From NCBI GenBank assembly GCA_008632985.1, contig QPGO01000115.1, positions 62,001 to 126,000 of the forward strand: a stretch of 64,000 nt of DNA, read 5' to 3'. Below the pieces are notes generated by a model that did no database searches, was not told where the DNA came from, and was given only the letters and a program-made list of their open reading frames with translations. Below, piece by piece: positions 27,831 to 64,000 of this stretch; the stretch's first letter is position 1; each line of letters starts with the position of its first letter. The position numbers and the translations under genes were made by a program. This stretch comes from Psammoneis japonica. Its lineage: Eukaryota.

Positions 27831-28099
27831 TGTTTGGCTTGTCGTTAAAGATCGTCAGTTGTTGTGAAAAAGGCAGAGCACAAAAATTAAAAAACATCTG
27901 TGTTCAAACATGAAGAACAGCAGGAGATTGACAATTGGCCAAATGACAAAAACCGTCATGTGCAGACAAGTAGATTTTATAATGTGGCAATGTGTTTTTA
28001 TCATGTGTGCAGATGTTATGATGTCGTGCACTCTGATGCTTCACAGATGTTCACAAAACCAACCAAGGAACATCTCACAATGTCAAAGCTCTGAGGAAA

Positions 28100-30030: not shown

Positions 30031-30151
30031 GGTAACTAGCTAGCAACTAAATGCTGAATAGTGAAGAGGATTCGTTCCCCCAGTGGTTTCACAGTAACAA
30101 ACTACACTATGCGTTACAATCAGCGACATTTCCAACCGTCTGGCTCAGACG

Positions 30152-32530: not shown

Positions 32531-32762
32531 AGTCGAAAGACAGTTCTGTCGTGTGACAGGAAGAGAGAAGCTTGCGCAGGTTGTTTGCAATGCAAACAGC
32601 ACCAAGGCATGCAGACATTGTTGTTGTTGCTGTGCTGTTGTTCAAAGGATTGTGGCAAAATTTTGTTGCAATTTTAACAGCTGTTTGAGTGGTCAGCTGA
32701 ACAAATCAATGGGTCTGGGTTGCAGTCATGTTCTGCAACCAGAATGATGTTCAGTTGTGACT
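32531..32762 (-). repeat. 3' LTR of the Copia element (232 bp)
   Basis: Aligns with 39449-39677 (shared gtctgggttgcagtcatgttctgcaaccagaatgatg); adjacent to the PPT. Confidence 0.85.
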
Positions 32763-35700
32763 CTCCTTCTCAACCAAAAGAGCTTGTTCACCAGCCCATC
32801 AGAGCCTTTCTGGCCATGCGGAACACATCTGTCCACAGTCCCTTCATGAACTGATCAGCCAGTTGCTCTAGAGTGCTGACAGGTTGGATGTCAAACTGCA
32901 ATTGTTCGACCTTTGTCCCAAACCAATGATGCAGGACACCAATGTGCTTAGTTCACAGAGACAACTTGGGCACATGTGCAAACTTGAGGGCACGCAGTGT
33001 TGTCTTTGCACACAACGGACGCAGGCAGGATGTTCTGCTTGATGGGCAAGTCATTGGTGCCTTTTTTGGTGAGCTCAAAAGCCTTGGAGAGTGAGTCATG
33101 ATGGGGTTGCGGTGGTCAGACTTTCCAAATGCACAATGGTGGAGCTCCTTCAGAACTTCACAAATGGGGATGAGATTGCACACAGCCTGCAACAGCATGA
33201 CATGCTCCACTTCCACAGTGGACAATGCCACAAGAAGAGTCCGCAGCATGGACACCTGGACAAGTGGACAGCCGGCACAGTGGACAAGGCATCCAGTCCT
33301 GAACTTGACTGAAACTGGGTCTTGCCCATCTTCAACACCAAACAAGCCTGTGAAGTCAGAATTGACATGACAACCAACTCGATGATCTTGCGCAGGCTTG
33401 AGCATGAGACTGTCAGTGGCAGCAGCCTTGAGGCATCAGAGCATCCGCTGCTTCACTGCAGCAGCATGGGATGCTCGAGGTGCAAACAAAAAACATGCAA
33501 CTTGATGTGTTGCATGTGCAACATCTGGCCGGCTGTTTGCAGCCAAGTGCATCACCATTCCAACAACTGAACAACAATTGCAGGGTCAACCGAAAGTCAG
33601 GCCATCCTCCGTGTCTGTGCCAACATGTGCAGGAACAGCTGGAGTGGCAGCTCTGTTGCAATCTTCCATTTGGGCAGCGCGCAGGACCTTGTCAATGAGA
33701 CCAGGTTGAGTGAGCAGAAATTGACCATTGGAGAGCTTTTTGATCTTGATGCCAAGAAAGTCACTGACTCCTCCTTCATCTGCAAGTTCAAACACATGGC
33801 GATGCTCATTGTCAGAGACTCCTCCTGGCTTGCAAATTTCCTCCTCCAGAGCTTCTGCTGACACACCAGTGAACACCATGTTGTCAATGTGCATGACACA
33901 CATCATGCCTTCCTTGAAGTGTGGGCATGGGTCTGTGGCTGAAGGTGCCCATCCGTGCTTGATCAAACCATCTCACAGTTTCTCACAAAAACACTTTGGA
34001 GACTGCTTGAGGCCACACAGTCCTTTCAGTGGCTTGAGGACCACATTGAGTCCCAACCTTGGCACAAAACCCTTGGGTGGTGATGGCGGACTTCTTTGGC
34101 AATGTCCGCTTGGCAAAAGGCTGTGGTGTGGTCTGCTTGACATGCAGTCCATCTCTCTTTCAATGCAGCAGTGAGCATGAGTCAAATGCTGGACCATTGC
34201 ACTGCTGGCACGCATGTCTCAAAACAATCTGTGCCCTCTTTCTGCAGATCACCATGGGTGCAGTGCTGGGACTCATGCTTCAAAGGCATTCCATCTGGTG
34301 GCCTCTTAAGTTTGAAAGCCCATGTGCCAGGGAGTGCACACATCTTCAGTGGTGCATTTCACTGCTTTCCAGGCTTGATGGTGGATGAGCACATTCACTT
34401 TAATCTTCATTGCCTTGATCCACTCTTTTGCATCCGGGCCCATCAGAGCATTGTGTGGCAAAGGCACACTGGGGTTCTTGGTCTTCTCACTTGCTGCATG
34501 AGCCCTGGGAATGCCAACATTGCATGCACACCAGCATCCAAAATGGTCTCAAGAGCAGCCAGACAAGCCAGCTGAGCTTGGCATCTCATTGGCACCTCTT
34601 CTTCCTTGACGGAGCTAAGAAAAACTTTGTCCATGAACTTGGCAGAATGGAGCTGTCCCTTGGTTCACCTGGAAGACCTTTGAAGAAGTCCCAACTCTCC
34701 CTCTGAATTCACCATTGGAGATGCTTTGACTGGAGCAGGTGCTGTTGGTTCAGAAGGTGCTTCAGGTGGCGGAAGTTTGTCACTTTCCTGAGGTGGAGGT
34801 GGCTGAATTGGCACAGGCTCTGCAGAGTTTGCAGTGTCTTGAGTTGCAGGTGGGGCTGGGGGCTGAGTTGGAGTTGGTGCTGGAGTCATGGGCACAACTT
34901 GATTTGATGCATCATTGAGAGGAACAGCTGGATCCTGCACAGATGTCGATGGAGTTGGTTGGAAATTGCCTCAAACACAAGTCTCTCTGACCAGTTCTTC
35001 TTGCTCCTTGCATTGGTGTTCAAGAGGAGTGAGCCACTCATTGTGAAGATGGATTGTCTGGTCTTTCTCCAGAGGGATGATGAAAATCAACTGCTTGTGA
35101 CAAAGTTGCTTCCAGTGGTCAGATGGATCCATCTCCCTCTTGATCAATGGTGCAGCAGTGAACAGACAATCAAAAACCACACAATGCTGAGGAGCAATGC
35201 TTCCAGTTTGAAGATTGAGTGCAAGGGGTGCCTTGCTTGAATGGATTGTTCTCAAACCAACAAAAAGAGCATGGTGAGCACGTGGTTGCCATTGAGGCAG
35301 TTTCTTCCCAGAAGCAAGTGCCGGGTCAAGAATGCACGCTGGACAACCCCATGTGTGAATGTCTTGCAAGTGATGCCAAGGCACCATGGAACCGGTGAAA
35401 ATGTCTGCTGGGCAATGCCCTTGTGCATTTGGGGTGATGTTGCAGATGTGCGTGGCACAAGATGCAGCTGTGGGTCACAGTGAACTGTTGGCCCCTCCCT
35501 TCCAATGAATTGATGCATGTGGGAGCATCGCTCTTGCCATGTTGGAGACAGAACAAATGCTGCACTCAGCAACCCTGCTCTGGTGATGGGCATTTGCACC
35601 ACAGATTCAAAGACATTGCTTGTGCTCCCTCACATGCTGGACAAAAGAGTTGGCCTTAAAGTGCCGCTGTCAGCAAGAAATTCTTGAATGATGACCCCAT

Positions 35701-37600
35701 GGTGGAGAGCATCATGTTTCTCAAATGCTTGTTTTGCTGGAATCATCTCTGCAGCAGAGAAACCCAGTTGATGTTCAACATGGAGGCAGCCTGAGGCATG
35801 GTCCATGAAGATGCAGACTCCCTTGAATTGTTTGGACATGGCTTCACTGCATGAGTCACAGGTTTGGCCTGGGAGGTGTGACTCAAAATGATCAATGCTT
35901 GTAGCCTGACCCAGTCACAAATGGTCAGGTTTCAGGGCCTGTCGTGCTCAGGGACTGCTGTCTTGTGGCAGAGCCCAGAGATTGTTTGTGACCTTTGGCA
36001 TGCTTTGCATCTTTGGTGGTCACACTTGGCCACCAACTTGAACCAATTTGACAAGAAAGAAACTGAACGGAGAAGGGCTTGGACGCGACCAAAGTTCAAA
36101 TGACCAAAACAGGAGTGCATCTCTGACAAAAGCTTCTGACCCACCATCAGATTCTGGTTTTCTTTGTTGAGAGCAAGCAGGTTCATTTGGGGAGCTTCAG
36201 AAACCCCCTTGGTCATTGACACAATGGGCAAGTGGCTTGAGGCATGACATGGCACTTCCAACTTCCCTGAGCCGTCAACACAAAGTCTGAAACTGTGCTG
36301 GTTGCCTTTGCACTTCCCACAGACACCCTTTGCTTTGTTGAAGAGATGCTGTGGTGACAGCAGACCTTGTTGGGCCCCAGGGACACAGTGCACCATGGCA
36401 TTCAGTTGGATGGTGGCACCGCTAGTGTTGTGAAGATCCGCGTGTCTTCATCATGAGAGACAGCCAATGTGGCACCAGTGTCTGTGATGACAGCCAGACT
36501 CCAGACTCTTGTCCAATGGACCGATGAGTGCCTGTGGATTGGTTGCCAACAGCTCGGCTGGGATGTGCCAGTGAGGAACTGGATGGTGGATGCATTGCAG
36601 ACAACTGGCCCAACACATGCTTCTTTCAACAGAGGCAACAGGATCTTGAAAATGAGCAGCATCAACAATGTGATGAGGGACACAGAGCTTGTCAAATTGG
36701 AAGGAATCAGAGCTGAAGTCCTCAAGCATGTCAAAGAAGCACTTCTGCTCATTGAGAGGCTCCAATTCCTCATGGGTGTTGAAGAAGGTTGATTCGTCAA
36801 TCAAGTCTGACCATTCAACTGCTTCTTGGGTCTTCCAGTGGCTTTGCAGACACTTGCTCAGTGCTCGATGGGTGGCACATGACAAACTTGGTGAGCACCT
36901 GCATGCCCTTGATCTTGTTGCATTCAAACAGAGATCCAGCATCTGACACAAAACCCAGTCATCTAACTCCTCCACAATGTTGCAGACCTGAGAGCTGGCT
37001 GTCGAAATTGGCTTGGCACATTCATGAATGGGCACTCAGGCTGTTGACTGACACAAACTGCAGATCATGCCATGACTGTGATGGACAGGACCATCCAAGA
37101 GGCTGGAAACCTGCACAAGGTGGGGAGTTTGTGTTGGCAATGCAGAGCTCAAGGGACACTTGGGATCAGAGCAAAGCAGACATGTGGTGCCGTTTCCCAA
37201 AACACAGCAGCAAGCCAGAATGCAAAGAGTTTGGCTTGTCCCAAAATTGATCGACACAAAGAGAGGTCTCTTCTTTGTCACACTCATGACAATCATCCAC
37301 ATCAAGGTTCTCTGGATCATAAAAATCAAAGCCATGGTGTGCAACACTTGATGGCAAGTCATTGCACGCATCTTCAAAGTGCAACTCATGTTCAAGAATG
37401 AGGTCCAGCTTGGCGGTGTCTGACAGCATGTCTGCAAGGTTGGCAGGTGCATCACAGAACTCATCTGAGTGCTTGATGGAATGCAGCTTTGAGGCTGGAA
37501 ACAACTCAATGGCCAGTGGTTTGTTTTCAATTGCAGACAGAGCATTGGAGCATTCACAAAAGTCATTGGCATCTTTGGGAGTGACGGTCTCAACCACAAT

Positions 37601-37662
37601 TGGAGACATGACTGGAGACATGACTGGATCCACAACTGGATCCACGACTGGATCCATGACTG
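37601..37662. repeat. 12-bp tandem repeat (about 5 units) in the gag-pol linker
   Basis: tggagacatgac tggagacatgac tggatccacaac tggatccacgac tggatccatgac; encodes PVMDPVVDPVVDPVMSPVMS. Confidence 0.85.
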
Positions 37663-39448
37663 GGCAAGTGTTTCGTGAGCTCAATTTGATGCAGTTCTCC
37701 TTGAAACTGACTTCCTTGTTGTTCTCCCACTTGGCTGAAGGGGCTGGAGCAACTGTTGCTGTCACAGCAACAGAGGTGGCAAGAAAACTTGGGTCATCAA
37801 TGGCATCCGTAGCCGCACACCACACACCCGTGTGCACCAACTCGTTGGGGTCAGATTCCTCCCCATCAGGCTCCTTGACAGTGTGAGCTGGTGGCCCCAC
37901 AGGCACACCGCTGTCAGGATTGGAGACTTGGGATGGGTTGCCCACTGGTGTTTCCTTGGGAGATCTCTTGAAGTTGTCCTTGTGCTCTGTGGCAGAGTGG
38001 TGTTGGTGGAGGCCAAGCTTTTCAGCTCCTTTTGCCACACACTTGGCACACCACTTCCATTCCTTCCCATTCTTGTTGGCTGTTGTGTCCCCATCACATT
38101 TCACACACCATGCCTGAACCCTTTTCTTCTTCTTCTTCTTCCCACCAGGGTCATCAGCAGGCATTGGATCCAGATTGGTGTCCTTTGGAGGGGGCTTCAG
38201 GTTGCACTTTGGACAGTTGTGCTGCAAAACACTTCTTGGCACTGGCTGGATTGTCAGACATGGAGAGGCTCCCTTTGGGAAGTTTTGCCACCAAAGCTGG
38301 CCATTCTCTGTCCTTGATGAGTTCAGAGTGCTCCTCCTGAATCCATGCAATGATTCCGACCAGTCTGAGAATGGCGCAGTCAGTGTCCAACTTGACAGCA
38401 GCAGGGCCCTTGAGGCAATGCTTGCGTTCCATCTTCTTAACATCATCAATCTTGTCATGCACTGAATGATTGAAGTGCTTGGAGGATGCATTTGAAACTT
38501 TGTGCAAGATCTTGGACCCAACATTGACCGGAACCGCACAGTCAGTCTGCATGATCTTGAGGATGTGGAGAGCTTTGGCAGCAAAGTTGGTCCAGTCTTC
38601 ACTGGGATGGGTGGCTAGAGCAAGCTCATCTGGGTCCTTCTTTGCACTCTCAATGTCAGCTGGAGCACTGGTGTTGCATGCATCCAGAGCCATCATGAAC
38701 AGCACTGAGCCTGGACAGTTCTTGCAGTCCTTCAAGTGGTTGAACTTGGTCTCCATTTTCTCGTGGAAGGTGTTCGTGATTCTTGATGGAACCAGCAGCT
38801 GGGACAGCCAGATGTTGTCAAGCTTGATGTCATTGTTGGCTGAGCCATCCAAGGCTGTGGAGCAAGAGGAGCGTTCTGCATGAAGGTCCACTGTGGAGAA
38901 CTTGTGGAGGTCATCAAAAATGCACACGGCAGCTCCATCCAATTTCTTGACATGGCAGAACATCTCTTGTCCATGAGCCTCAACTGGATCTTGGATGGTC
39001 TTCATGAAGGCATCCGTTGAACTTGGAAGTCATTGTGGAAGCTTGTTGATCTTAGAAAGAGCGCTTGATTGAATCAAGAGCTTTGGGGTGACAACACTGG
39101 GATGCGAAACAGGCAGGTCACAAGTGTTGTTTGGCTGGCATGGATCCGCTGACACAAACTCTGTGAGTCTGATGAAATCCACTGCAAATTGGTTGGGTTG
39201 GTTGTGGTTGGTTCTGGAGTTGCATTCCGGAGAAGATTGTTGTGAGTTGCTGCATCAACACAGCATCTGGAGCAGCACCAGTGGTTGAGGATGCAGTGGG
39301 AGGTGCAGGAGATGCCATGGTTGGATGTGAAGGCAGAAAGAGCAATTCAAATCAGGAGCTGCTTTTCCAGGTTTGCTTCAAAATCATGTCTGTGACAACA
39401 AACTCAGCCAGGAGCTTGGCACCAATGCACAAATTAGTCTCTGTGACC

Positions 39449-39677
39449 AGTTGAGAGACAGTCCTGTCCTGTGATGGGGAGAGAAAAGCTCTCGCAGGTT
39501 GTTTGCAATGCAAACAGCACTGAGGCAAACAGACGTTGTCATTGTTGTCTCGTTCCAAAGATCATGGCAAAAGTTTGCTGTGATTTTGAACAGCAATTTA
39601 AAAGCAGTTGGCTGAACAAATCAATGAGTCTGGGTTGCAGTCATGTTCTGCAACCAGAATGATGTTTGGTCGTGACT
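39449..39677 (-). repeat. 5' LTR of the Copia element (229 bp)
   Basis: Aligns with 32531-32762; lies just upstream of the gag ATG. Confidence 0.85.
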
Positions 39678-40465
39678 GGCAACAAGAGCAACTTTGCAAA
39701 ACTCCAGAGAGGTCTTTCACTGTGCTTGGCTGTGCTCTTTGACATGATCACTGCCAGTGCAATTTTGGCTTTGTTGTTTTGCACTTTTGATGGCATTCTT
39801 TGCTCCACAACAGGGCAAAAACAATGCTTTGTTGGCACAGATGAGCTCTGGGAAAGACATTTGTGCAGCAGGGGCAAGGCTTTGCAAGGGCAACACCAAG
39901 AAGATGTGCTGTGTGCCCCCAATGTTTTGCTGCAGAGTGGTGACCACATGGGATTCAGAGGAGTGTCACTCCCACTGAACATGAAGAAGGGGGTGGGGGT
40001 GGGGCAGAGGGCTGGCGAAATTTGGCAGCATGTGAGATTGTGGAGCAGGCAGAGGGCAATGTGAGAACAGCCAAATTCCTGGTGCCGAGAAAGTCAGAGC
40101 AGCCGTGCTGCGGGGTGGGACAACAAGAGCAGCTGTGCAAGGGTGGGACAACATCATGGCTGGATGCACATTTCTTGCAAGCGACAACAAGCGAAGTGGA
40201 AAAGTGGCAAAAGGATCGCAATGATTTGGCCCTCAGACAAACTCTAGACTGCAAGGGTCAACACCCCCCCCCTGTTATCGTTGTGCTGCAGACAACAAAA
40301 AAGCGATAGATGAGCAGGAACGCAAGTACACACCGTGCTATCACCCATAGCTAGCAAAGTAGATGCTGTAGAGTGAATGGGATTCATTCCCCGTGTGGTT
40401 TCACAGTAACAAACTCTATATTATGCATTGCAATCGGCAACATTTCCAACCGTCTGGGTCAAACG

Positions 40466-41755
40466 CTAGTCCAACGGGATGCCAAACTTTTTCATCAATG
40501 CAACCCCGATAATCGCACCAGTGAGATAGTAGCCGAACGTAACTTCAGGGGATAACACAGGATTCTCAGCATCTCCCAGTATTGAGTTGTAGGAAGAAAG
40601 GGTGACCTCATCGAAGAAATAGTCTTCATCTTGCAAGGCCAGGTCAGTCTCACTCTTTGTCGCCACGGATAGAGCTTTTGTATGACAAAACCCAAAGGTG
40701 CTGTTGCACACATCGGGTATTCTTTCACCGAGTCCGCTCTCGCTGAGTAGTAATTCTCGTTGCTGAGCTGCCAGTAGGAACCCTTGCTGTTTCGTCGCCA
40801 AGAGATCAGAAATGTGCGTTGAAGTGCCTTGCTTCAGACTAGGGAGGCCCTCGAGAATGTCTTCCCGTTCATCCAATACCTTGATGAAGCGGCCCTGGTA
40901 GAAAAAGCCGACACTCACGTAGCAAAGATAGAAGCAAGCAATGGTGGCAAACTCCTTGAGTCCCTTACGCTTTCGGAACACAGCCATTTCGATAAACTCT
41001 TTGCATTCTCCTTCTTCCTCCATGTCCTCGACTTGGTCTTCTTTTTCTTCAGGTATCCAGCCAAATACGCTTCCCGACAATCGAGCCAGAATTAGGCTCA
41101 ATATCAAGACTATCAGGTTCACGGTCTCGTCCATTTCGAGTTCCTTGGTTGGTTCGACGATGATGAGAGAAAATAGTTCAAAGCACGCAACGTGTGTGAA
41201 GCAATGGACGAAAAGTCCAAACATCCCAGGGATGGCGTATTCCATTTCAAACTTAGCTTGGCGCCGGAGACTTTCGCAGAATGGGATTGATGTTGGAGTT
41301 CCTGAGGCGGCGGATGACGACTCTTCGTTCTTCTTCTTCTTCTTATCCTGTGTAATCGTCTCCTTGGTCTTGGTGACTGCAGGTTTGGTTGTCTTGGCTT
41401 CATTCTCCTCCTCGTCCACTTTGTCGTCATTATAGCTAGCAGAGAGCTGAAGCATGTTCTTGCGAAACGATTCTTCGTAGTCAATCAAAAGCTTCATCTC
41501 CTCGTTGCTAGTGGTATTCTTGAGGAGGCTTAACATTTCTTGTCGAACCTTGAGATGCTGCTTGATGGTGACTTCATCAACAAGTTCAACAATCGTTTCT
41601 TTGCTGCGGAAGTTCGTTTTTTCGGCTTCAGGGCCGACTTTTCGTTCTTTCTGTCTTGTTCTCTCTGACAAAGCTGATTTCTGGCTCGTTTCGTCCTCGT
41701 CCGAACCATGAACGGGGGAGGGGGAGATGAGTTGTTGTTGTTGTAGGGGAGCCAT
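40466..41755 (-). CDS. Unknown multi-pass membrane protein, copy B (429 aa)
   Basis: Intact ORF with long stretches identical to copy A (VSVGFFYQGRFIKVLDEREDILEGLPSLKQGTSTHISDLLATKQQGFLLAA); flanks are also homologous. Confidence 0.8.
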   Translation of the reverse strand: MAPLQQQQLISPSPVHGSDEDETSQKSALSERTRQKERKVGPEAEKTNFRSKETIVELVDEVTIKQHLKVRQEMLSLLKNTTSNEEMKLLIDYEESFRKNMLQLSASYNDDKVDEEENEAKTTKPAVTKTKETITQDKKKKKNEESSSAASGTPTSIPFCESLRRQAKFEMEYAIPGMFGLFVHCFTHVACFELFSLIIVEPTKELEMDETVNLIVLILSLILARLSGSVFGWIPEEKEDQVEDMEEEGECKEFIEMAVFRKRKGLKEFATIACFYLCYVSVGFFYQGRFIKVLDEREDILEGLPSLKQGTSTHISDLLATKQQGFLLAAQQRELLLSESGLGERIPDVCNSTFGFCHTKALSVATKSETDLALQDEDYFFDEVTLSSYNSILGDAENPVLSPEVTFGYYLTGAIIGVALMKKFGIPLD

Positions 41756-42551
41756 ATCTGCGACGATGAATCAAGTGGTGATGGCTAAGTCACGGTGCTA
41801 TGTTTTTGATTGGTAAACAGGTTCGATCGCAAGTCATACGTAAATGGCTGAGGCGCAAATAATTTGGTTGTCTTCTCCACCTGTGAGTACTACTCGTGTT
41901 CGGTGTCACGCTTGCTTTTTTATGTTCGGTCCACTTGATTGATTGGGGAGGGGTCGATGGGATTTTAGCGGTGAGCGATGATGGGTTCGCATAATGGTTT
42001 TTGCGAAGGTGCAAGGAGCGCTTTTAAAATGCGCTTTCAGTCTTTCATATGTGTTATTGCCTCATAAAAAGTTCCTACTTAGAGGACACCGCGCGAATGT
42101 TGTTTTCTATTCATAAAGGGCACGTGTGAAACGCCAGTCTTCTGAGATATTCTTTCTTCCAATATGAATAATAAGATGAAAAATTGAAAATTTTGAAATT
42201 TAAGAAGTTGTAAAACGCTAATCATTGTCACAACATAATAAAATGGATGACCGTGCCGGCTGTCGGGTTCTGTGCGATAAGCTCGCTTGGCTGGATCTGT
42301 GTGAAAGCCCAGTGACCCACTGAGATGTTTATGTTTTTTGTTTTGTCTGTGTCAGGCCGGTTCCAGGTTGATGATCCTGTTTCCTCATGACCGACATAAC
42401 GACATGACCGAGACCGAGAGAGTGTTTTTACGACGAGGGAATGACGCCTTGTCTAATGGTGTAGAGTATAAGCAAAGCAAGGGAGGGCTCTGACAATTGC
42501 ATTGTTGTAACAAATTTAGAGCTGCTGCAATCGCTACCAGAATAAAAAATT

Positions 42552-51741: not shown

Positions 51742-52469
51742 CGCGGCAGAGGATCGAGTAAACGATACAAACATACATACAGTTTGGTCATCGCCGTCGG
51801 CACGTTGTGATGCGGCGAGCAACGATCGCTCCAGGCGAATTCAAAATTGCATGAAAAGAATACCGCTCTGAGGAACATATGAAACACTTTTAAAAAATAA
51901 CTACATACTCGTGGATGATAAACTAAGAAGGGTGAAAGTGAGTCGAGTGAATCATACATATCATGAGGGCGGATATTTATTACGGACCCATAATTTTTTG
52001 GGATAATAACCGGATGCACCGCACTAAATGCACGTGCGCTCGGCAAATGAAATTCTAGCGATAGGTCTAACTTTGTCAGTTCCTAAGACATCATAGAATG
52101 CATAAACGATGGTTGTGACCATGTGCGATCTTTAGCTTATCGACTGTAGATATGTCTATAGCCAATCAAACGCCAATTATCGGCATTTCCTGGAAAGTTG
52201 TGGCTCATCTACCATAAGCAGAGCGATTTTGGCGAAAATTAGCGGTAATTTCAACCTAGCAACAGGGCATAGGCCGTTAAGTGGCGTTTGAAGCTTCGAA
52301 CATGCAGCTCATATAGCGGTCTAACAGCCCTGATAAGGGTTTGTCGAACACATAAGTGTTTGGGGGTGTTCGGAGACGGGTCCAAATAACACGGCGAAGT
52401 GCGGGAAAATCGGCACCCATAACCCATTCGCCTCACCCCCGTGGATGTATCCTTAACTTGGACATTGCT

Positions 52470-52745
52470 TTGTACTCTATGTAGTAGCCCTCTCTACTCT
52501 ACCGGTAGCTAGAGTAGTAGTAGACCTGAGTCTAGCTAGCCCTACTTTCTCTCTACTATCTAGTAGAGAGGGTAGAGTAGTAGCTAGTAGCTACTCTCTA
52601 GAGAGTACGGTAGCTCTAGTAATAGCTACTCTGCCAGTAGTAGAGAGGGCCCTACTAACAAGCATTGTGGGCCACGGAAGGAATATTCTGATGCTCTACC
52701 TGCTAGAGAGTAGTTGCTCTCTCTACTAGAGAGACTACTCTCCTT
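52470..52745. repeat. Low-complexity TAG/CTA/GAG-rich intergenic tract
   Basis: e.g. ctctactctaccggtagctagagtagtagtag and tagtagagagggtagagtagtagctagtagctactctctag. Confidence 0.8.
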
Positions 52746-52948
52746 CCATAACAAGTAGACGTACAGTACCATGCAATCCAGAGAGTGAGGAGCCGAGCTT
52801 GTGATCGAGCGCCCCTCTCCCATGAAACAGAGTTTGAGTTGTTGGGATGAGCAGTCAAGTGCTACCTAACCATTGACAAAGAACATACTATCATACTACT
52901 TTATGACGCCTCCGCTCTAACAATTTAAGAAGCGTGAATGTTGTTCCT

Positions 52949-54311
52949 TCACTTGAGCCACACAATAGCAACGCAGACATTGTCAAAGGAGCCTCGCCTT
53001 ACCGCCTCTTTTGCCACGATATTGGAAAGACCACGTCTCCTTTCGGCACTCGTCTCACCCACGGCGGACTCCATCTTTTTATGAACAAACTTGACAGCCT
53101 CCTCGTTCGAAAAAACATCCCATAGACCGTCACTGGCCAAAATTATAAATTCATCACCAGCATCGGCAACGGGTAGCTGCATAATCTCGGGTTCGGGGTT
53201 TACAATGGGTTTGTGCTCGCGGTCTCCAATCGATCTAGACACACCCAAAAAACCATTCACACGATAAATTTCTCCGACATCATCATAGACCACCTGACCA
53301 CCCATGGATGCGATTCGCTCTTGTTCCAACGGATCTCCGGGCTTGTGGTCACGGGTAAGTGGAATCGCGCTTCCCATCCGACTCAGCACGGCCCGGCTGT
53401 CTCCCACATTGGCCGAAATGAGTGTTCTCTCGCCATCATCGCTTTCATGCAACAAGACCGCAACAGCGGTACTGCCCTGATCCTTCAAAGCATTCACCGC
53501 CAACACCTCGCGCTCCACCTCTGCAAAAGCCTTCTTTAACGCATTCACTCGGGCAGTGAGTGAAGGCTTCCAACCCTCCTTGCTGAGGTAGCTGCTAAAG
53601 GAATGGTACAGGTGTGCTCTGAGAAATGCAGAGACTCCGGCACCTCCGTGTCCATCAAACACAGCCGCAAATCGACCACCATCTCGTAGCAAATAATTAT
53701 CCTCCATGTACAAGCGATGTCCCTGAACAGCGCCGACTGAAGCCTGCGTGTCGATAAAACAGACGAGAACAGTCATCAGCAACCGAGTCAGAAACAACCC
53801 GCACACACAGCGCATGCTGTCTCTAGCTAGGCCATACAACACTTACATCATAAACATCAGGATATGGTGATGGTCCCACTACAAGTCCTCTCGTAGGAAG
53901 ACGAGCTCTCCATGGCTTCCCGTCTAATACTTCACTAGGTGCTTCCAATGGCTGTCCCGAAATGACAAGCTGAGCACCGGCAGCAAACGACGCTGTTGCT
54001 CCTACCGCAAGCATAGCTGCCATACACCGTTCGACATTGGTAAGTCCGTTCTGATGATGTTGTTGTGAATGAGTTGTCGTCGTCCTATTGGTTGCTGTGG
54101 AAAAGGCAGCTTCCGACAGAGTCGCATTGGCACGTTTCGTGTATCCCGCCACTCGTGCTGGCCTCATGAGCGACGATGATACGACTCCCGCGCACGCTCT
54201 CTTACTTAGCTCGCGTTTCATCGGTTCTGCTGATAATCGGACAGCTGCATTGACAAACATACTTGTTCCGTGACTGTAAGAGAGTCTGGGAAGGGCAGAA
54301 GAAGGACCCAT
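52949..54311 (-). CDS. PP2C (PPM) protein phosphatase, paralog 1; intron 53744-53846
   Basis: QGHRLYMED, VFDGHGG, GSTA, ANVGDSRAV, DHKP, SRSIGD, LASDGLWD, DNVCV. Confidence 0.92.
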
Positions 54312-55159
54312 GGTGGTGTGTTTTTGCAGCGGCAGGGACGATTGGCAGGTGTTGCGGATGTTGTGTTGTGACTGATGGCACTGTTCTCTCTGCTTCCGTT
54401 CTCCGTTGAGAGGGATGTTGAAGCAAACGGCGGTGTGGTGGCTGGGTGATGGCTGTCGGACGTTTTACGTACGTCTTACGTAGAATCATACCATGTGACG
54501 CACGGGTTTGAATCAGTCCAAAACGGCTTTGGGGAGTGCAGGGAACATAACGGCACGTCACAACATTTATTGAAAAATCAACGATGCGTTACATTGCTTA
54601 TGGAAGATAACGGTTATCGCCACTCCGCGAGTTCGGCTGCGCGTGGATGAATGAATCATGCATGATGTTTGGTGTGGCAAGGCAGCGCAGCAGGCGCAAA
54701 GCAACAGTAACGAAATTTCAAAAAAAGGACACCGCAGCGCAGCCAACAACAGCACAGAACACCGACCGTGCCTTTGACCGTGCGAAGTTGTGTGGGAACC
54801 ACGAACGACAAGAGTGAAGAGCGAGTGCATGCAGCGCATGAGATTGAACAACTGGGGGCTCATTTCCCTGTTTCAAAGACACGCTCAGAGTTTGCACGAA
54901 GTTGGGTGCTGCAAACCACTTTTGAGGAAAATCGTGCTGGCAAGAGAGCAAAAAAGTGTCGAGCATCGCGCACGAGGCTAGGCAGCTGAGCTCTTCTGCT
55001 CTCCTGTTTCAAAAGGACGAAATTGGTTTTCAGATGTGCCAGCAAGCACCACTCATGTGCAGCCGAGTTTTTTGTTTTGTGTGAAAATTCAAGAGATTGT
55101 GCCTTCCCATCAGCCCATGACACATGTGCTCCGGAAAGCAGCTTGCTCTTGTGGGGCAT

Positions 55160-55190
<31 letters not shown>

Positions 55191-55269
55191 CACTGAACAA
55201 GCAACTTCTCCATTTTTCCTGGCTCTGCTGGCACCTCTCTTCTTCTTTTTGTTGGCTGTTTCCCCCACC

Positions 55270-56010
55270 CTTTTTTTTGCCAAACGTCCATTTTTTTTGC
55301 TGGCGGCAAGCCCAGTGTTTGCACATGGACATGAGCATGTGTCATGCATTGCAGTCAATGCCAGTGCATTGTCCATGCACATCATCATTGTGCATCAAAA
55401 ATGCAAATGCTCTGCGAATGCAGCAATCTTCAATGTGCAAAACCTGCAAGCAAAAATGCACCTCCATGCACGAATGTTTGAGGTTTCAAAATTTTTCACG
55501 ACTTGTCGAAACGCGACGACAATGGCGACCGCGAACGCAATGTGCTCCACCAATGGCCACAATCTTGCCATGACACTGACACATGTCAACAGCACATAAC
55601 TCATTTCACATGTGTGTGCCTTGCTGTGCTTTGACATTGATTGGTCATGGCAAAAACAGCTGAAATGTCAAATTTTTTTGCCCATCGCTTTTTGACCGCA
55701 TGAGCCAACAATGAGCCCGCTGCACTCTCATGTGTCAATGACACTGCACATGAGTTGACAATGCATTGTGCACTGTTGATTGTTGTGGCTCTTTAAGACA
55801 ACGCCATTGAGAAAACGGTGACCGCCGAGTCGCCATGGTGTGGTGGTTTCTTCCGGGGTTTCCAGCCATGGTGCACCAACGGCGAATTGGCAGTGCCAAA
55901 ACTGAGTCATGTTTGTCGAGCTAGTGTGGCTGCCACTTTGTGCATCATGTGCCAACCATTCTCAGTGGTGGGGCCACCAGCAAAAAAAATGGATGTTTGG
56001 CAGAAAAAAA
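55270..56010. mobile_element. MITE-like element, about 740 bp, with about 35-bp terminal inverted repeats
   Basis: tttttttgccaaacgtccattttttttgctggcggc (~55271-55307) is the near reverse complement of gccaccagcaaaaaaaatggatgtttggcagaaaaaaa (~55973-56010); ggctgtttccccc lies near both sides. Confidence 0.5.
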
Positions 56011-56020
56011 CAATGACTCA

Positions 56021-57110
56021 GGCTGTTTCCCCCCCAATGGCCGCCAGGATTTTTCACACATCAGACAACTCTCTCTGAATGGAAACTTTCAGTGTCTTCA
56101 GGGAAGCTTTGCCCAAAGCTCTTGGACAACACAAGCAACTCACACCAATCCAAAAAATGACACTGGGGGACAAAAAATGTGCACAAAACACACCATCTGG
56201 TCAACAGTCCAGTCGGTTGCACCGCGCAACAGAGATCGTTGTGATTGCGTCCGATGCCACGCAACACGGATGCAAAGGGCAAAACTCAACTGTTTTTCCT
56301 GCTTTTGTTCTTGTGTTTGGAGTTCCAAGTTTCTTGTTTTTCCTTGTTTCTTCTGTCCTGTTGTTGGCGACCACGATGATTGCGAGAATGGCGAGGCATC
56401 GCGCGTCGCGCGTGGAGTGTTCTTTCGATGTGGCTGTCTTTCGACTTCTCCCATGTCACCCCCATGCCTTTCAAGAGTGGTCCTAAGAAGATGCCAACGA
56501 CCCCCACTCCCAAAGAAGGGAGGGGGCACACTGCTGAACAAGCCATTCCCCACTTCTCTTGGCTCTGCTGGCAGCACCCTCGGTGCCTGCTCTGCGCCAA
56601 GCTCTCCTCTTCTTTTTGTTGGCTGTTTCTCCTTTCTCCCCCAATGGCCACCACCAGGATTTCACACATCAGACACCTCTCTCTGAATGGAAACTTCAGG
56701 GAAGCTTTGCCTTGAAGCTCTTGGATGACACAATCAACTCACACCAATCCAAAAAACGACGCTGCTGGGCGACAAAAAATCAAACACACCGTCTGGTCGA
56801 CAGTCCGGTCGGGCGGTTGCCATGCCAGCCATGCGATAGAGATCGTCATGATTACGTCGACATTTTCTGATGCCACGTAATACGGATGCGAAGGGCGAAA
56901 TTCAACTGGGTTATCGTCCCCTGTTTTTTTGTGTTTGAAGTTCCAACTTTCTCGTTTCTCCTTGCTCCTCCTCCCGTTGTTAGCGACCATGACGATTACG
57001 AGAATAGCATCGCGTGGGGTGTTCTCCATGGTTGTCTTTCGACTTCCCATATCGCCTTCATGCCTTTCGAGAGTGGTCCTAAGAAGAAAGCAACACCCAC
57101 TCCTAAAGCA
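56021..57110 (+). repeat. About 600-bp tandem duplication of the promoter and 5' CDS of PP2C paralog 2; the upstream copy is hypermutated
   Basis: 56021-56515 aligns with 56621-57110; 55191-55266 aligns with 56528-56630. Confidence 0.85.
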
Positions 57111-58451
57111 CGGTCAATTTTCATTCAGCACCTTGTCGAGCGAGGTCCGCCAACAAACACAACTGGCTGCGACGCGCCGTGAAAAGTACTCTGGATTCGT
57201 GTCGTCCTTGCGAGCCCAAGAAACGAATGCCCTACAGCAGATTAGGTCAAATAGAATTGCTAATGCATCCGCATTTTCGACAAGCGCGAGAAAGAGGGTT
57301 GAACAAGAAAGCTCGTCATACTCATTCTGGTCTCCTCAACAGAGCATGTTTGGTGTTCTCGCTGTTGGTGCCATTGGGTCCTTTGCTGCAGGAGCATCAT
57401 TTGTACTGACCAGACCGAATGCGACGTGTGATCCGCCACCGACTGACATATTGGATGATAAGCCGTGGAGAACTCGCTTACCGACGAGGCGCATGCGCCC
57501 CGTTGGTCCGTCGCGTTATCCTGATGTCTATGATGTAAGTGGCAGGTCGAACCGACGTGGCAAGCTTCGTAATCTTATGAAGATTACTTTCCTTGGCACT
57601 AATCTTTCTCACCTATTTATACGAAACTATACTTTATAAAGGCTTCTGTCGGGGCTGCCCAGGGACCACGCTCGTACATGGAAGATAACTATTTGCTACG
57701 CGACGGTGGTAGATTTGCTTGCGTATTCGATGGGCACGGAGGAGCCGGTGTGTCTGGATTCCTTCGCGAGCACCTATACAAAAGTTTTATCATGTACGTC
57801 AACAAAGAAGAGGCAAAGCGAAATTGGGAGCCAACACCTTCCCTAGAATCACGAGTAGTTGCCCTACGATCAGCCTTTCGAGACGCCGAGCGCGAGGTAG
57901 TGAAATTGAATGCATTAAAAGATCAGGGTAGTACAGCTGTCGCTGTTGTTTTGCATGAGGATGATGATGGAGAGCGGACACTGATATCTGCAAACATTGG
58001 GGATAGTCGTGCTGTCCTGAGTCGAGCGGGTAAAGCTATTCCGCTGACGCGAGATCACAAACCCGGCGATCCGACAGAACAAAAGAGAATCTCGTCCATG
58101 GGTGGTCGAGTAGAGTACGATGAATACGGAGATTTATATCGAGTGAGAGGTTTGGGAGTATCACGATCTATTGGAGACCGCGGACTGAAACCAATTGTTT
58201 ATTCTGAACCTGAGATCACGCAGCTCCCCGTAGAGAATGAAAGCGATGAATTCATAATATTGGCAAGCGATGGTTTGTGGGATGTGTTTACTAACAAGGA
58301 GGCTGTGAGATATGTTCACAAGAAAATGCGGGCTGCCGAGGGTTCCACGAATGCTGAGAGGAGACGTGGTCTCTCAAATATTGTTGCTAATGAGGCAGTC
58401 CGAAGGGGCTCGTCTGACAATGTTATCGTCGCCATTGTGTGGCTCAAATGA
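56989..58451 (+). CDS. PP2C phosphatase, paralog 2; intron 57535-57641; start codon tentative
   Basis: QGPRSYMED, VFDGHGG, ANIGDSRAV, DHKP, SRSIGD, ASDGLWD, SDNV; exon 1 shares KPWRTRLPTR..GPSRYPDVYD with paralog 1. Confidence 0.92.
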
Positions 58452-59001
58452 ATGGTCCATTCTGTCACTTTTGTGTATGCATGGGAATACGCTACTGCTC
58501 TGCTCAACAAGGAATCAATACAAAAACGCTTTGTGCTGCTATAGGTTCATTGCTACAATAGAGAGCCCGACCAAAAATATGTTTTTCAATTGTCGGTCAT
58601 CTATGCATTCTCAAATCTTCGTGTACTACTTTTATGCTTATGGGTTGCCACTCGCCACTTTTATTTACACTCTAGGCTCTCTGCCGCACCTACGAATTGC
58701 TCTCTAGAGTACCGGTAGCTAGAGCTCTACTGTATTCATAGATTCATAGACTACTTGAGAAGCAGTGAGACACGGAGATTGTGCAAGCTGTTGCTACTGT
58801 ACAAGTTAGGCTTTCCGGGTCCCCAGCCATATCAACCTCATTGACGTCATTGTGACGGCATCGTACTAGAATGTGTAGAATTATACATGGATCAACAACG
58901 CGAACGTTTTTCTGCTCTCTTTTTTTTTTTCAGAAAAGCAGATGGCAATGATGCAGTATGTTTATGGGAAGAAGTTGAAGTAAACGTTAGTTTGAGAAGC
59001 A

Positions 59002-60592
59002 ATGGCGTCATCCAACTTCCAACTGCCATTTTCGAAACGAACACCGTTGCCCAACAACATGATGGCTCGGTTGATGGCTGCTCGCCATGGTCAAATACTT
59101 GTTCTTTCTTCTCCGTCCTCTTCTCACTCTTCTATGTTGATGAATTGTACTCGGTCTCGGTGTTTCTCGATAGCATCAGCGCGAACGATCCAACGTCGTG
59201 CGATTCACCAGAAACGGAATTCCTATAGTAGAGGCCTCATGCAGAGAAGAACGTCGGCATCGTCGGTACGACACAGCAGCGTTCAATCATCTGGAGCTGG
59301 CGCTGACTCCTCTAGGTGGACCGTGAACGAGCTTGTAATGGCAGGGCTACTAGCCTTAGGAAGTACAGTTGCTTTTGTAGCCGGAGCTGAGCTTGCTGTC
59401 GTGAAATCCAAAAAGGAAGATGAATCGTCATCAATCATGAGACCGCCGCAGGCAAAGCCAATGGAAAAGGAAAAGATGAATGGTTTAGCTCTCGAGACGA
59501 TAGATGCCATTGGTGAAAGCTCTGAAGGGAACATCAGTACGATCACAGGAAATGTAACTGCTGTAGGACGATCCAACGAGCATACGTTACCAAGTATTTC
59601 AAGTATTCCATACGAGGTAATTGAAGCGAGAATCACCTTTCTAGATTGCAGTTGAGCTCCAGAATGAATCTTTACACTCACTTTCTCAATTTTTAATGTT
59701 GCTCGCTCTTCTTTATTTGCTTGAATGTAAGTCTTCGGTATGTGCACTCCAAGGGCATCGACCGCACATGGAAGACACCTGCTTTGTTGGTGAGGGGGGT
59801 AGATTCGTAGCCGTTTTTGATGGTCACACGGGGGCTGGAGTATCTAGCTTTCTTCGCGACCGCCTGTACAATACCTTTGCAAGACATTTAAAGAGAGAAA
59901 TTGGCAGCACCAACAGTGACAATGCCGCATCTCGTGCCAATGCCCTTCGTGCCGCGATTCGTGACATGGACAAGGCTGTCCTGCAACAAGATCGACTCTG
60001 CAATCAGGGGAGTACAGCGGTTGCTGTATCTCTGCACGAACAGGAAACTGGATACAAGACACTCGTGTCTGCCAATGTAGGAGACAGTCGGGCCATTTTA
60101 AGCAGGGCGGGGCATGCTGTTGATTTAACTAGGGATCATAAACCAGGTGATGCGCATGAGAGAGCACGGATTGAAGCAATGGGAGAACGTGTGGTTTGCG
60201 ACCGCCGATATGGAAAAGTGTGTCGCGTACGTCAATTGGCAGTGTCCAGAGCCATTGGTGACGCGTTTGCAAAGCCTGTCGTGAGCGGTGAAGCTGACAT
60301 TCAACAAGTGCCGTTATCCAACGTAGACGACGAGTTTATACTGCTTGCGAGCGATGGCCTCTGGGATGTCATGTCTAGTCAAGAAGCGATATCATTTGTT
60401 CACGACAACATTGAAGCAGTGCAAGAAGACCATGCCTCTCATGCAGACTTTGATTTAGATGAGGCAGAGACTTCCTTGCGTAAACACATGTCAAGTTTCG
60501 TCGCCAACGAAGCTATAAGACGAGGGTCTGTTGATAACGTTTGCGTTGTTATTGTATGGCTCAAGGATAGGCTACATAATGCTGGTGAATAG
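59002..60592 (+). CDS. PP2C phosphatase, paralog 3; intron 59617-59731
   Basis: QGHRPHMED, VFDGHTG, ANVGDSRA, DHKP, SRAIGD, ASDGLWD, DNVCV. Confidence 0.92.
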
Positions 60593-62730: not shown

Positions 62731-63126
62731 AGTTCCTCGAACGGATGGAATGCACTGTCATGGTTACCTCCAACTTTACAGTGTACTTTGTTGGTCAGTC
62801 TTGCTTTTCTTCCCTTCATTAAATAGTCATGACGTGTACACATCAACCATTTCTTAACTTATTTAGCTCCGGACATCTGTACCAGTCGTATGTCCTGTAG
62901 ATTTCTACACAATATCCGCCACGTGAGCACGCGCGAATGCAAAAGATCGCGGAGGCACATCAAAATCCGGAGCAAACATCACGGAACTTGTTCTGTTCAA
63001 CTTGCATGGCCATCAAACTCCGGTACAAAAAGATCCTGGGCAACGGCTCGCTGTATTGTTTGAATTCCGACGTTTGAATCCAAGTGCGGCACAATTGCGT
63101 TCTGTTTGTCATAAAGTCAAGACACC

Positions 63127-64000
63127 ATGGCTACTTGTAGGTTAGCATCCGCAGGAATCGTAGGCGCTCGTCGGGGTCGAAAGGCAATTCGGGGTGGCTC
63201 ATGCGTGAGCAACGCCAACAATGCGCGAGTCAATGCTTCATCTGCAGCACGAGGCGGCCAGAGACGTCACTCCTTTGCAGCTCCAACTGGATCCTCTCAA
63301 AGTGATAATTTCAATGACGCTACCAACTGGACGGCTCGTGAAATGTCCATGGCGATGGCTGTTGGATTGGGTGCCAGCGCGTGGCTGACGTTGGATGTCA
63401 TGGAGAAGAATTCTCCAAACAACCTTACAAGCACGATAACGAGAAAAGTCACGGAAAGTCTTCAGGATAAGAAGCATTCTCTCTTGGCAACCACTTCTGC
63501 AGCAACTGTACCGAGCGATCAGGGATGGTGTGCAGCTCTGCAACAGGTTCTTATGGAGCATACGAGTGGCTTTCGCAAGCCTGAACCTAAGCCTTTGATT
63601 CGAGAACAACGATATGACGTAAGTGACGGAACTTGTGTCTCGTTTGTTATACCATGGATAATACCGGTAGTTGTTTCTCACTGAGTCACTTGATCAATGT
63701 TTATGCATATTTACAGGCCTCGATTGGAGCTCTCCAGGGCGATCGCCCCTACATGGAAGATACTTGCTACGTTGGCGACCAAGGCCGGTTTGTTGCTGTC
63801 TTTGACGGTCATGGTGGATCGAGGGTGTCGTCTTTACTGCGAGAACGCCTGTACAAATCCTATGCCGGACACCTAGACAAGAAGCGAGCACCATCGCTTT
63901 TACAGCGACAAAAGTCCATTCGTGCCGCCTTTGATCAAGTCAACAGGGAGGTTCTCAAGCTCGACGAGCTTGAGTTTGAAGGAAGCACAGCAGTCGCCGT
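63127..64000 (+). CDS. PP2C phosphatase, paralog 4, truncated by the window end; intron 63619-63716
   Basis: After the intron: ASIGALQGDRPYMEDTCYVGDQGRFVAVFDGHGG...EGSTAVA. Confidence 0.88.

Follow-up and report, generated by a model that had tools for sequence, protein, structure and literature searches.

The closest described precedent for the mutation pattern analysed here comes from the chlorarachniophyte B. natans, for which a preprint reports 230 of 231 A>G/T>C mutations in mutation-accumulation lines, invariably at TpA and within two integrated regions of viral origin, as well as clusters that are depleted in TpA, enriched in CpA and TpG, and enriched in RT and DDE domains; its authors propose a TadA/ADAT2-like enzyme (Mettrop et al., bioRxiv 2026, 10.64898/2026.01.13.699255). 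In a search of literature full texts, which covered sources other than subscription journals, this preprint was the sole match for the process, with none on diatoms. Fungal RIP likewise introduces transitions region-wide into repeats after insertion, inactivates transposons and can leak into neighbouring DNA, but it makes TpA from CpA, which is the opposite polarity to the destruction of TpA described below. Clustered transitions are also left in retroelements by ADAR or APOBEC editing; ADAR prefers a 5' U, and A34, the natural target of TadA/ADAT2, follows the conserved U33 and thus sits in a TpA-like context. Among listed hotspots are UAG for ADAR and ACG for TadA/ADAT2. Finally, deamination of 5-methylcytosine converts CpG to TpG or CpA, and diatom transposons are described as CpG-methylated (PMC9998398, PMC2806351).

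Here we analyse a window of 64,000 nucleotides from an organism that its homologues identify as a diatom and whose genes have few introns, a lineage distinct from the chlorarachniophyte B. natans. A first-pass annotation had pointed to a duplicated sequence in which TA appeared to have been lost from one copy only. The process at work is probably TpA hypermutation of the B. natans type, which has already been reported; new here are its spill-over into host DNA, a rule for the 3' neighbour, and an accompanying loss of CpG.

Results

Five TA-poor blocks with sharp edges, together 27,162 bp, were compared with the normal DNA of the window (34,838 bp). Per kb, the blocks contain 3.5 instead of 40.6 TA, 20.0 instead of 55.8 CG and 213.6 instead of 141.7 CA+TG, while the sum of TA, CG, CA and TG is conserved (237.0 in blocks, 238.1 in normal DNA). 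In the blocks, rho TA is 0.03–0.16 and rho CA+TG 1.5–2.0. Depletion is near saturation (rho TA 0.03–0.1), unlike in the NCLDV region of B. natans, for which the preprint gives 0.45; the confinement to discrete blocks and the coupling of TpA depletion to a gain in CpA+TpG are nevertheless those of the B. natans type. CG has been lost to TG/CA in the same blocks, as in CpG decay through 5-methylcytosine deamination, but such decay leaves the TA loss unexplained, and its extent is independent of TA loss between blocks: at 20–28 kb, rho CG is still 0.5–0.9 though TA is gone. A single enzyme or chromatin state may thus be insufficient to account for both. This second, separable component had been absent from the first-pass annotation, and CpG has 0 occurrences in the main text of the B. 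natans preprint. The DNA affected comprises a probable copia element and a high-copy TIR element, but also flanks that are unique and a fragment of a host gene. Pfam searches with block ORFs (11 + 75 ORFs) gave nothing above chance in the 15–30 kb, 46 kb, 55 kb and 61 kb blocks, and self-BLAST in purine/pyrimidine space added no repeat family to those already seen in the window. A 500-aa ORF within a block (25745–27247) has one homologue, which carries no name.

The 95 TA retained in the blocks are strongly biased in context (chi-square p 1e-23), as 30 of them lie in TTAA, an 8.5-fold excess, while retention is 0/98 in the ATAT class and 0/195 in the ATAC class. Conversion follows a 3'-neighbour rule, TAT > TAC > TAG >> TAA, under which TTAA survives and which is absent from the main text of the B. 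natans preprint. The two strands are affected equally (CA:TG ~1:1; runs z ~0), and strand-coordinated clusters of the kind produced by APOBEC-type processive editing were not seen in the blocks.

One TA-poor tract lies between two PP2C genes in divergent orientation (54709–56836; 5 TA in 2128 bp, or 2.3/kb; CG 37/kb, CA+TG 205/kb). To its right, gene B, an inferred model on the plus strand (56989–58451), consists of exon 1 (56989–57534), a GT..AG intron (57535–57641) and exon 2 (57642–58451), and its predicted product is a PP2C (PPM) phosphatase, with a PF00481 match at E 1.3e-49 that scores 169.6 bits (cut-off 20.3). To its left, transcription of paralogue A (52949–54311, minus strand) leads away from the tract, and TA is near normal in the sequence upstream of that gene (54311–54708; 27.6/kb). 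In run X2, which is not on record as RNA, coverage is restricted to the gene bodies (54000–54349 and 56960–58521), with none over 54501–56838.

The tract is centred on a non-autonomous TIR transposon (55271–56009), both the element and its central position being new relative to the first-pass annotation. Its 37-nt TIRs (55271–55307 and 55973–56009) are 92% complementary, and the insertion is bordered by the 13-nt, TSD-like direct repeat GGCTGTTTCCCCC (left copy 55254–55266, right copy 56021–56033, both plus strand). With these TIRs, the direct repeat, many copies (summed X1 contig depth 380–1700 versus ~53 in the flanks, in one sample) and no transposase (the ORFs of 55271–56009 gave no Pfam match), the element qualifies as a MITE-like TIR DNA transposon. 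It interrupts the first unit of a tandem duplication, the second unit of which carries GGCTGTTTCCCCC once and uninterrupted, as an intact site. The TA-poor tract reaches ~560 bp to the left and ~830 bp to the right of the element and ends ~150 bp 5' of the ATG of gene B. On the left, the flank at 54709–55168 is unique DNA (X1 depth 47–53; no match within the window) and has 1 TA versus 18.7 expected (P 1.5e-7); the right flank has 1 TA versus 33.6 expected. Mutation of host-derived unique DNA beside a transposon sets this locus apart from B. natans as presented in the preprint.

The duplicated sequence is the 5' region of a PP2C gene. The upstream, mutated copy (56026–56520, plus strand) has 1 TA in 495 bp, and the downstream copy (56633–57113, plus strand) forms the 5' region of gene B, which is intact. 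They contain ~356 bp of upstream sequence and 41 codons (125 bp of the ORF), with the ATG at 56989 in the downstream copy, which bears out, for the copy itself, the earlier description of the affected DNA as a host promoter and first exon rather than a transposable element. The left piece of unit 1 (55182–55265, plus strand) matches 56518–56632 (plus strand), the 5' piece of unit 2 and the spacer between both copies, with 76–84% identity; BLAST found no third copy of the repeat in the window. Contigs built separately, from 31-mers of the public run X1 at a depth of ~53, cover 56262–57901 with 10 differences and 55982–56230 with 0 differences, and since they reproduce both the tandem layout and the TA-poor sequence, neither is an artefact of this assembly, with the qualification that X1 possibly derives from the same sample as the window assembly.

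MAFFT aligns the two copies at a mean column identity of 84%, and a second alignment, of 457 aligned columns, gives 81%. Mismatches number 86, of which 63 are transitions and 23 transversions. All strings quoted in the first-pass annotation are present where it had placed them, and aligning both copies confirmed its count of about nine one-way TA changes: nine sites have TA in the downstream copy (56837, 56853, 56878, 56881, 56981, 56997, 57005, 57050 and 57104) and CA or TG in the upstream copy, none shows the reverse, and one TA, in cctaag (56484/57080), is common to both (binomial p 0.0039). A stricter column filter gives 8:0:1 (p 0.0078), which means that 8 of 9 TA were lost at a transversion divergence of ~4%. 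All nine TA differences are of the TA versus CA/TG type, as in B. natans, and at 7 of 8 informative sites the A predicted by the 3'-neighbour rule was converted. Single-base changes, counted from upstream to downstream, are symmetric (C>T 17, T>C 15, G>A 14, A>G 17); the asymmetry claimed at first pass is thus borne out at the level of dinucleotides only, where it is 9:0 at TA. CG was also lost more often in the upstream copy (14 sites versus 5, with 8 shared), which alone is not significant (binomial p 0.064). A duplicate in normal DNA that has diverged to a similar degree (30037–31597 versus 40348–41874; 85–89% identity) served as control: there, TA stands against CA/TG at 8 sites in one direction and 5 in the other, with 40 shared, and the proportions of kept and changed TA differ from those of the PP2C pair (Fisher p 4e-4), although the control is mostly coding and under selection, and hence not neutral.

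The nine sites all fall within the 3' ~280 bp of the copies, while the 5' ~200 bp is without TA in either copy. The downstream copy, described as intact at first pass, deserves that name in its 3' part (56837–57113, 277 bp), where 11 TA amount to a normal 39.7/kb against 3.5/kb in the upstream counterpart; its 5' part (56633–56836), with 0 TA, lies inside the TA-poor tract and is affected as well. The pseudo-exon of the upstream copy extends from an ATG at 56376 to a stop at 56484–56486, which contains the sole retained TA, and its reading frame has been moved by indels relative to gene B. The loss of TA raises GC in the upstream copy.

A change cannot be polarised from two sequences, and the direction therefore rests on evidence beyond the pair; as the closest PP2C homologue is only 58% identical, the nine sites are polarised indirectly. 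The upstream copy can be taken as the mutated one because the downstream 3' part has a normal TA density (39.7 versus 40.6/kb). Moreover, the copies differ by adjacent CA-versus-TG double mismatches, which need a TA or CG ancestor and so imply a change from TA/CG to CA/TG, made independently in each copy. There are 4 such doubles in the copy pair, of which 2 survive the strict filter, 6 in a 175-bp tandem repeat, and 8 in 251 bp of an LTR pair, where they constitute all 8 double transitions, against a single one in the 1506 bp of the control duplicate (Fisher p 1.2e-6).

The LTR pair belongs to a degenerate LTR retrotransposon, probably of the Ty1/copia type (32506–39677, minus strand), inside the TA-poor block 32260–40245, whose RT provides an outgroup test. 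Its Pfam matches occur in copia order (gag_pre-integrs, Integrase_H2C2, SH3_retrovirus, RVT_2) but are all weak, below curated cut-offs, while RT homologues were found with E down to 2e-37. Among 150 RT homologues, Tyr occupies one column in 93% (of 119) and another in 85% (of 150); at these columns the TAY codon is now TGT (Cys) and CAC (His), respectively; two conserved Leu are Pro (CCA), and Val has changed to Ile and Asp to Asn, each after a C. Tyr is found at 0 of 239 residues, against a homologue median of 2.8%, and His and Cys make up 10.5%, against a median of 4.8%. Just 1 of 150 homologues is also free of Tyr, a count that is no evidence either way on TA-free elements elsewhere. The change of conserved RT Tyr to Cys and His again gives the direction from TA/CG to CA/TG. 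Together with the TA densities, the mass balance of dinucleotides, the doubles and the B. natans precedent, this supports, at the level of sequence, the polarity proposed at first pass, in which TA was probably ancestral at the nine sites and became CA or TG in the upstream copy.

Discussion

In our view, the tract most probably records a region-limited, post-insertion conversion of TpA to CpA/TpG, along with CpG loss, in a domain around a transposon in the duplicated 5' end of a PP2C gene. The 5' end was duplicated in tandem, with a unit of ~600 bp, and the high-copy TIR transposon inserted later into the upstream unit. By sequence, element and flanks, ~560 bp on the left and ~830 bp on the right, make up one mutated domain, in which nearly all TpA have become CpA or TpG, by a change at the A:T pair of either strand, and many CpG have become CpA/TpG. 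Because the tract stops ~150 bp before the ATG, the downstream copy keeps the 'before' state in its 3' half, and the upstream copy represents the 'after' state. The same process has emptied the four other blocks of the window, the probable copia retrotransposon included, and acts after insertion or duplication, site by site, and on both strands alike. The TpA change may be an enzymatic A-to-I deamination of DNA, with inosine read as G, by a putative enzyme guided to silenced chromatin nucleated by the transposon, while CpG loss may reflect deamination of 5-methylcytosine within the same silenced domains.

Such A-to-I chemistry would be shared with tRNA adenosine deaminases of the TadA/ADAT2 type and with DNA adenine base editors, which descend from these enzymes, as is a preference for a following C; TAT is, however, at least as susceptible as TAC here, unlike in the TadA/ADAT2 listing, and the order T>C>G>A at the 3' neighbour does not fit the listed UAG hotspot of ADAR and fits the listed ACG of TadA/ADAT2 incompletely. 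ADAR-type RNA editing before integration disagrees with the CA:TG ratio near unity, the lack of strand runs and the divergence of the LTRs after insertion, and an RNA or cDNA route via ADAR or APOBEC disagrees with the mutation of a DNA transposon and host flanks, and 3' G is not preferred here.

The same tract and direction could result from chemistry on T, if a modified thymine at TpA within silenced DNA, of the 5-hydroxymethyluracil type, mispaired with G and led to T>C. As TpA is palindromic, an A>G change next to a particular 3' base looks the same as a T>C change next to the complementary base on the 5' side. In some SAR algae, moreover, 5hmU is a common base and occurs preferentially at TpA. 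We consider this route unlikely, while granting it some weight; the authors of the B. natans preprint prefer adenine deamination (10.64898/2026.01.13.699255).

It is improbable that homology was the trigger, as in a true analogue of RIP where the tandem duplication, and not the transposon or its chromatin, marks the DNA. The affected host DNA is indeed a duplicate, LTR pairs and the tandem repeat are mutated as well, and the transposon is multi-copy. Yet the left flank at 54709–55168 lost its TA while single-copy, the downstream 3' 277 bp stayed intact while duplicated, and the gene duplicate at 30037–31597 and 40348–41874 was spared, so that duplication does not predict mutation over the full length; the hypermutated viral region of B. 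natans is likewise described as single-copy (10.64898/2026.01.13.699255).

If the upstream CA/TG were ancestral, a RIP-like C-to-T change of CpA/TpG to TpA on the downstream copy would yield an identical two-sequence alignment, and diatom DNMT4 is described as related to fungal RID (PMC9998398). This direction is very unlikely, however, as TA in the downstream copy is normal and not raised, while the upstream copy is ten-fold depleted. It would need ~20% of CA/TG to have become TA, where the control shows ~6% for both lineages together; the RT outgroup gives Tyr to Cys/His and not the reverse, and the CA-versus-TG doubles require a TA or CG ancestor. Nor do the blocks at large carry the signature of fungal RIP, an excess of TpA with depleted CpA/TpG, but its inverse.

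Scarcely more tenable is a TA-poor composition intrinsic to the elements, or selected through avoidance of TA or of TAA/TAG, with no mutation process. The blocks do coincide with transposon-like DNA, but unique flanks and sequence from a host promoter and exon have lost TA as well, the mass balance is exact, LTRs that were identical when inserted now differ by CA/TG doubles, and coding capacity is ruined, as the Tyr-free, His- and Cys-rich RT illustrates. It is hardly credible that errors of sequencing or assembly, for instance wrong calls at modified bases in long reads, produced the pattern: although neither the assembly nor run X1 comes with a recorded sequencing technology, the X1 contigs, if not fully independent, repeat the TA-poor sequence, and the copies also differ by indels and 17–23 transversions.

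The process favoured here, conversion of TpA in a domain around a transposon, resembles B. natans as far as the preprint describes it: only TpA changes, to TpG or CpA, the effect is region-confined, TpA depletion goes with CpA+TpG enrichment, and there may be an association with sequences of RT and DDE type. TpA-specific hypermutation of invading DNA has been shown so far in one organism, and if its end state is seen in a diatom as well, it would be a broad genome defence among major marine algae and more than a curiosity. We see about an even chance that diatoms, beyond one chlorarachniophyte, possess an active, chromatin-domain-limited defence by putative DNA adenine editing, with the motif T-A-[T/C>G, not A], which would bring TpA to near zero in transposon domains, alongside CpG deamination, and reach several hundred bases into host promoters. 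It would then be a widespread SAR counterpart of RIP with opposite polarity, and its enzyme a natural DNA A-to-G editor. A natural DNA adenine editor, if true, would be of interest for base-editing research, and the 3'-neighbour rule, with TTAA spared and TAT/TAC mutated, offers a biochemical fingerprint for an enzyme search.

The before/after pair shows that mutation extends beyond foreign sequence, and it suggests that targeting follows position beside a transposon, in which case host regulatory DNA and gene duplicates can erode. There are also consequences for annotation, as TA-free DNA is without TAA and TAG stops and thus produces long false ORFs, and transposon proteins without tyrosine are missed. 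Comparison in purine/pyrimidine space restores the relatedness of such mutated sequences, as in the LTR pair of the copia element, whose identity rises from 77–80% to 93.6%.

A TA-depleted duplicate of a PP2C gene start

The 5' region of PP2C gene B (56989-58451, + strand) is preceded by a direct repeat of itself. Repeat search, MAFFT and BLAST agree on an upstream copy at 56026-56520 and a downstream copy at 56633-57113, and neither repeat search nor BLAST found a third copy within the 64-kb window. The strings quoted in the first-pass annotation are present at their positions, and the one-way loss of TA that it had claimed for the upstream copy was borne out: at nine sites a downstream TA faces an upstream CA (4) or TG (5), the reverse does not occur (binomial probability for 9:0, 0.0039), and a single TA, in cctaag, is common to both copies. 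Under the stricter column filter of a second alignment, eight one-way sites, no reverse site and one shared TA were counted. Identity is 84% (mean column identity, first MAFFT alignment) or 81% (457 aligned columns, second alignment), with 63 transitions and 23 transversions among the 86 mismatches of the first alignment. The annotation had also taken symmetric substitutions to speak against its reading; the single-base transitions are indeed symmetric (17, 15, 14, 17), since in the upstream copy a heavier loss of CG (14 sites against 5, 8 shared; second alignment) accompanied that of TA, but the changes at TA sites are nonetheless 9:0. A gene duplicate of similar divergence in normal DNA (30037-31597 and 40348-41874), which is mostly coding and hence a conservative rather than a neutral standard for retention, shows TA against CA/TG at 8 versus 5 sites and shares 40 TA (difference in TA retention, Fisher p = 4e-4). 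TA and CG are normal in both of these copies, which encode a protein of ~440 aa without a Pfam match.

The downstream copy leads into an open reading frame with its ATG at 56989 which, after a 107-nt GT..AG intron (57535-57641), reaches a PP2C phosphatase domain in the same frame (Pfam E = 1.3e-49). The duplicated segment thus comprises 41 codons from the start of the gene plus about 356 bp upstream of them, and 'promoter and first exon', as the segment had been called, is a fair label for the predicted gene model. In the upstream copy the frame is broken by indels and terminates at the sole retained TA. The duplication unit is larger than originally described, as 56518-56632 matches 55182-55265. 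The interval from 55265 to 56026 contains a 739-bp element whose terminal inverted repeats measure 37 nt; it is flanked on both sides by a 13-nt direct repeat that is single and uninterrupted in unit 2. On this element the summed depth of contigs from X1, a public sequencing run, reaches 380-1700, compared to ~53 on its flanks. Judged from this arrangement, the 5' end of the gene was probably duplicated in tandem first, and a high-copy non-autonomous DNA transposon would then have inserted into the upstream unit. Just left of unit 1, at 55150-55192, a (GT)n run is followed by about 23 G; X1 reads seem to be cut near it and repeats at 55149-55199 are skipped.

Four PP2C paralogues lie within 11 kb (52949-54311, -; 56989-58451, +; ~59000-60592, +; 63115-64000, +), each with an N-terminal exon containing a hydrophobic stretch, followed by the PP2C exon. 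The first two form an inverted duplication, 68% identical over 1.1 kb, and transcription of the first leads away from the region. Among homologues of the PP2C domain, the best ones with a name, at no more than 58% identity, all come from diatoms (Nitzschia, Fragilaria, Cylindrotheca and MMETSP diatom transcriptomes), and the genes of the window have long exons. The window's sole TA-rich kilobase, 52001-53000 (88 TA/kb, rho 1.22), is on the 3' side of the first paralogue.

TA-poor DNA around mobile elements

The upstream copy is part of a TA-poor tract (54709-56836) with 5 TA in 2128 bp, beyond whose edges a spacing of one TA per 10-30 bp resumes within tens of bases. The transposon forms its centre. 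The left part, 460 bp of single-copy DNA, has 1 TA where 18.7 are expected (P = 1.5e-7); the right part, 827 bp, has 1 where 33.6 are expected and contains the entire upstream copy together with ~200 bp at the start of the downstream copy, which have no TA. The nine informative sites are all found downstream of 56837; in its 5' part the pair thus compares 'after' with 'after', and in its 3' part 'after' with 'before'. At 54906-55104 the window and an X1 contig disagree at 8 positions in 200 bp, all transitions, among them CA to TG at 54964-5 and CGCG to CATG at 54967-70, with no differences in the preceding 900 bp; this suggests elevated diversity at the edge of the tract, stemming from a difference between haplotypes or strains.

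The tract is one of five blocks of like composition (15.2-29.8, 32.3-40.2, 46.3-47.3, 54.7-56.8 and 61.2-62.7 kb; 27,162 bp in total), which we compared with the 34,838 bp of normal DNA in the window. Per kb, the blocks have 3.5 TA (normal DNA 40.6), 20.0 CG (55.8) and 213.6 CA+TG (141.7), while the sum of the four is 237.0 against 238.1. The missing TA and CG are thus almost exactly matched by extra CA and TG, as transitions at TA and CG predict. Neither selection against TA nor a different intrinsic composition predicts such a near-constant sum. The two losses are separable: 20000-28000 is nearly devoid of TA (rho 0.03-0.16), yet its CpG is only mildly reduced (rho 0.5-0.9). Long open reading frames there (up to 500 aa) gave no Pfam match, the longest has one unnamed homologue, and they may be artefacts of TA loss, TAA and TAG being absent. 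Positions 1-2000, partly TA- and CG-poor (rho TA 0.17-0.32), are probably the edge of a further block extending past the window.

Direction of change

Three lines of evidence independent of the pair polarise the change. The first is provided by adjacent double mismatches that now separate copies which started out identical, since CA facing TG takes one step per lineage from TA or CG and two steps otherwise. The LTRs of a degenerate Ty1/copia-type retrotransposon (32506-39677, -), which lies in a TA-poor block bracketed by the control genes, have 8 such doubles in 251 bp, accounting for all their adjacent double transitions. In a 175-bp tandem repeat there are six, and in the control pair one in 1506 bp. 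These six are the main differences between the two repeat units (18310-18659), which lie in a block free of TA and CG and are 96% identical in purine/pyrimidine space. The PP2C pair itself has four, three of them in or bordering the part where both copies belong to the tract.

For the second, we translated the reverse-transcriptase region of the copia element, with TGA stops as X, and compared it to 150 phmmer representatives (E down to 2e-37). Two columns with Tyr in 93% and 85% of homologues are here Cys (TGT) and His (CAC), and two conserved leucines have become Pro (CCA). A conserved Val is replaced by Ile and a conserved Asp by Asn, in both cases immediately following a C, as would be expected of CpG to CpA. 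The fragment lacks Tyr throughout its 239 residues, and its His+Cys content is double the usual; its homologues have a normal tyrosine content.

The third is TA density, which in the 3' part of the downstream copy is 39.7/kb, compared to 3.5/kb in the matching upstream part. Being normal rather than raised, it excludes a RIP-like gain of TA in the downstream copy. Together these lines support a change from TA to CA/TG in the upstream copy.

Sequence context and mechanism

Conversions are equal on both strands (CA:TG near 1:1) and form no runs (runs-test z about 0); they look like many independent single-site events, not processive one-strand editing. TTAA makes up 30 of the 95 TA surviving in the blocks, an 8.5-fold excess distributed over all large blocks (for example at 16791, 18194, 20124, 27846, 34307 and 55794), and none of the 95 is of the ATAT or ATAC class. 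When sites are scored by the nucleotide that follows A on either strand, the ratio of shares in blocks to those in normal DNA is 2.48 for A, 0.95 for G, 0.57 for C and 0.28 for T (chi-square p = 1e-23), giving a susceptibility order TAT > TAC > TAG >> TAA. Of 8 informative sites in the pair, 7 were converted on the strand that this order predicts; the agreement is small but independent, and it is sensible only with TA as the starting state.

The locus is the end state of TpA-targeted hypermutation and CpG decay around a transposon in a duplicated gene start, which confirms the first-pass observation overall. TA and CG both changed to CA/TG, regionally, after insertion, on both strands and in a context-dependent manner, centred on mobile DNA and reaching into unique flanks. 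Adenine deamination in DNA to inosine, read as G, by an enzyme recruited to silenced chromatin, is inferred to account for the TA changes, and deamination of 5-methylcytosine for the loss of CpG; CpG methylation of diatom transposons has been described (PMC9998398, PMC2806351). The context order differs from the hotspot listed for ADARs (UAG) and is only partly like that for TadA/ADAT2 (ACG) (PMC10661471).

As TpA is palindromic, a modified-thymine route, with T>C instead of A>G, cannot be told apart from adenine deamination by sequence. A homology-triggered, RIP-like process is unlikely: unique flank is affected, half of one duplicated copy is spared, and the control genes, 85-89% identical, are untouched. 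A sequencing or assembly artefact is also unlikely, as contigs built independently from X1, a run that may share its sample with the assembly, yield the same sequence and span the two copies.

Full-text literature searches, which also took in RIP-like processes and A-to-G hypermutation of retroelements, gave no diatom report and a single directly relevant paper, a 2026 preprint. It describes a process of this kind in a different lineage of algae: of the 231 mutations that two integrated viral regions acquired in mutation-accumulation lines of Bigelowiella natans, 230 were A>G or T>C, all of them at TpA, at rates about 1000-fold over the rest of the genome, and an ADAT2-like DNA adenine deaminase was proposed (10.64898/2026.01.13.699255). 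The main text of that preprint mentions neither CpG, diatoms nor neighbouring-base context. New with respect to B. natans are the spill-over into host DNA, the 3'-neighbour rule and the near-saturation of the change.
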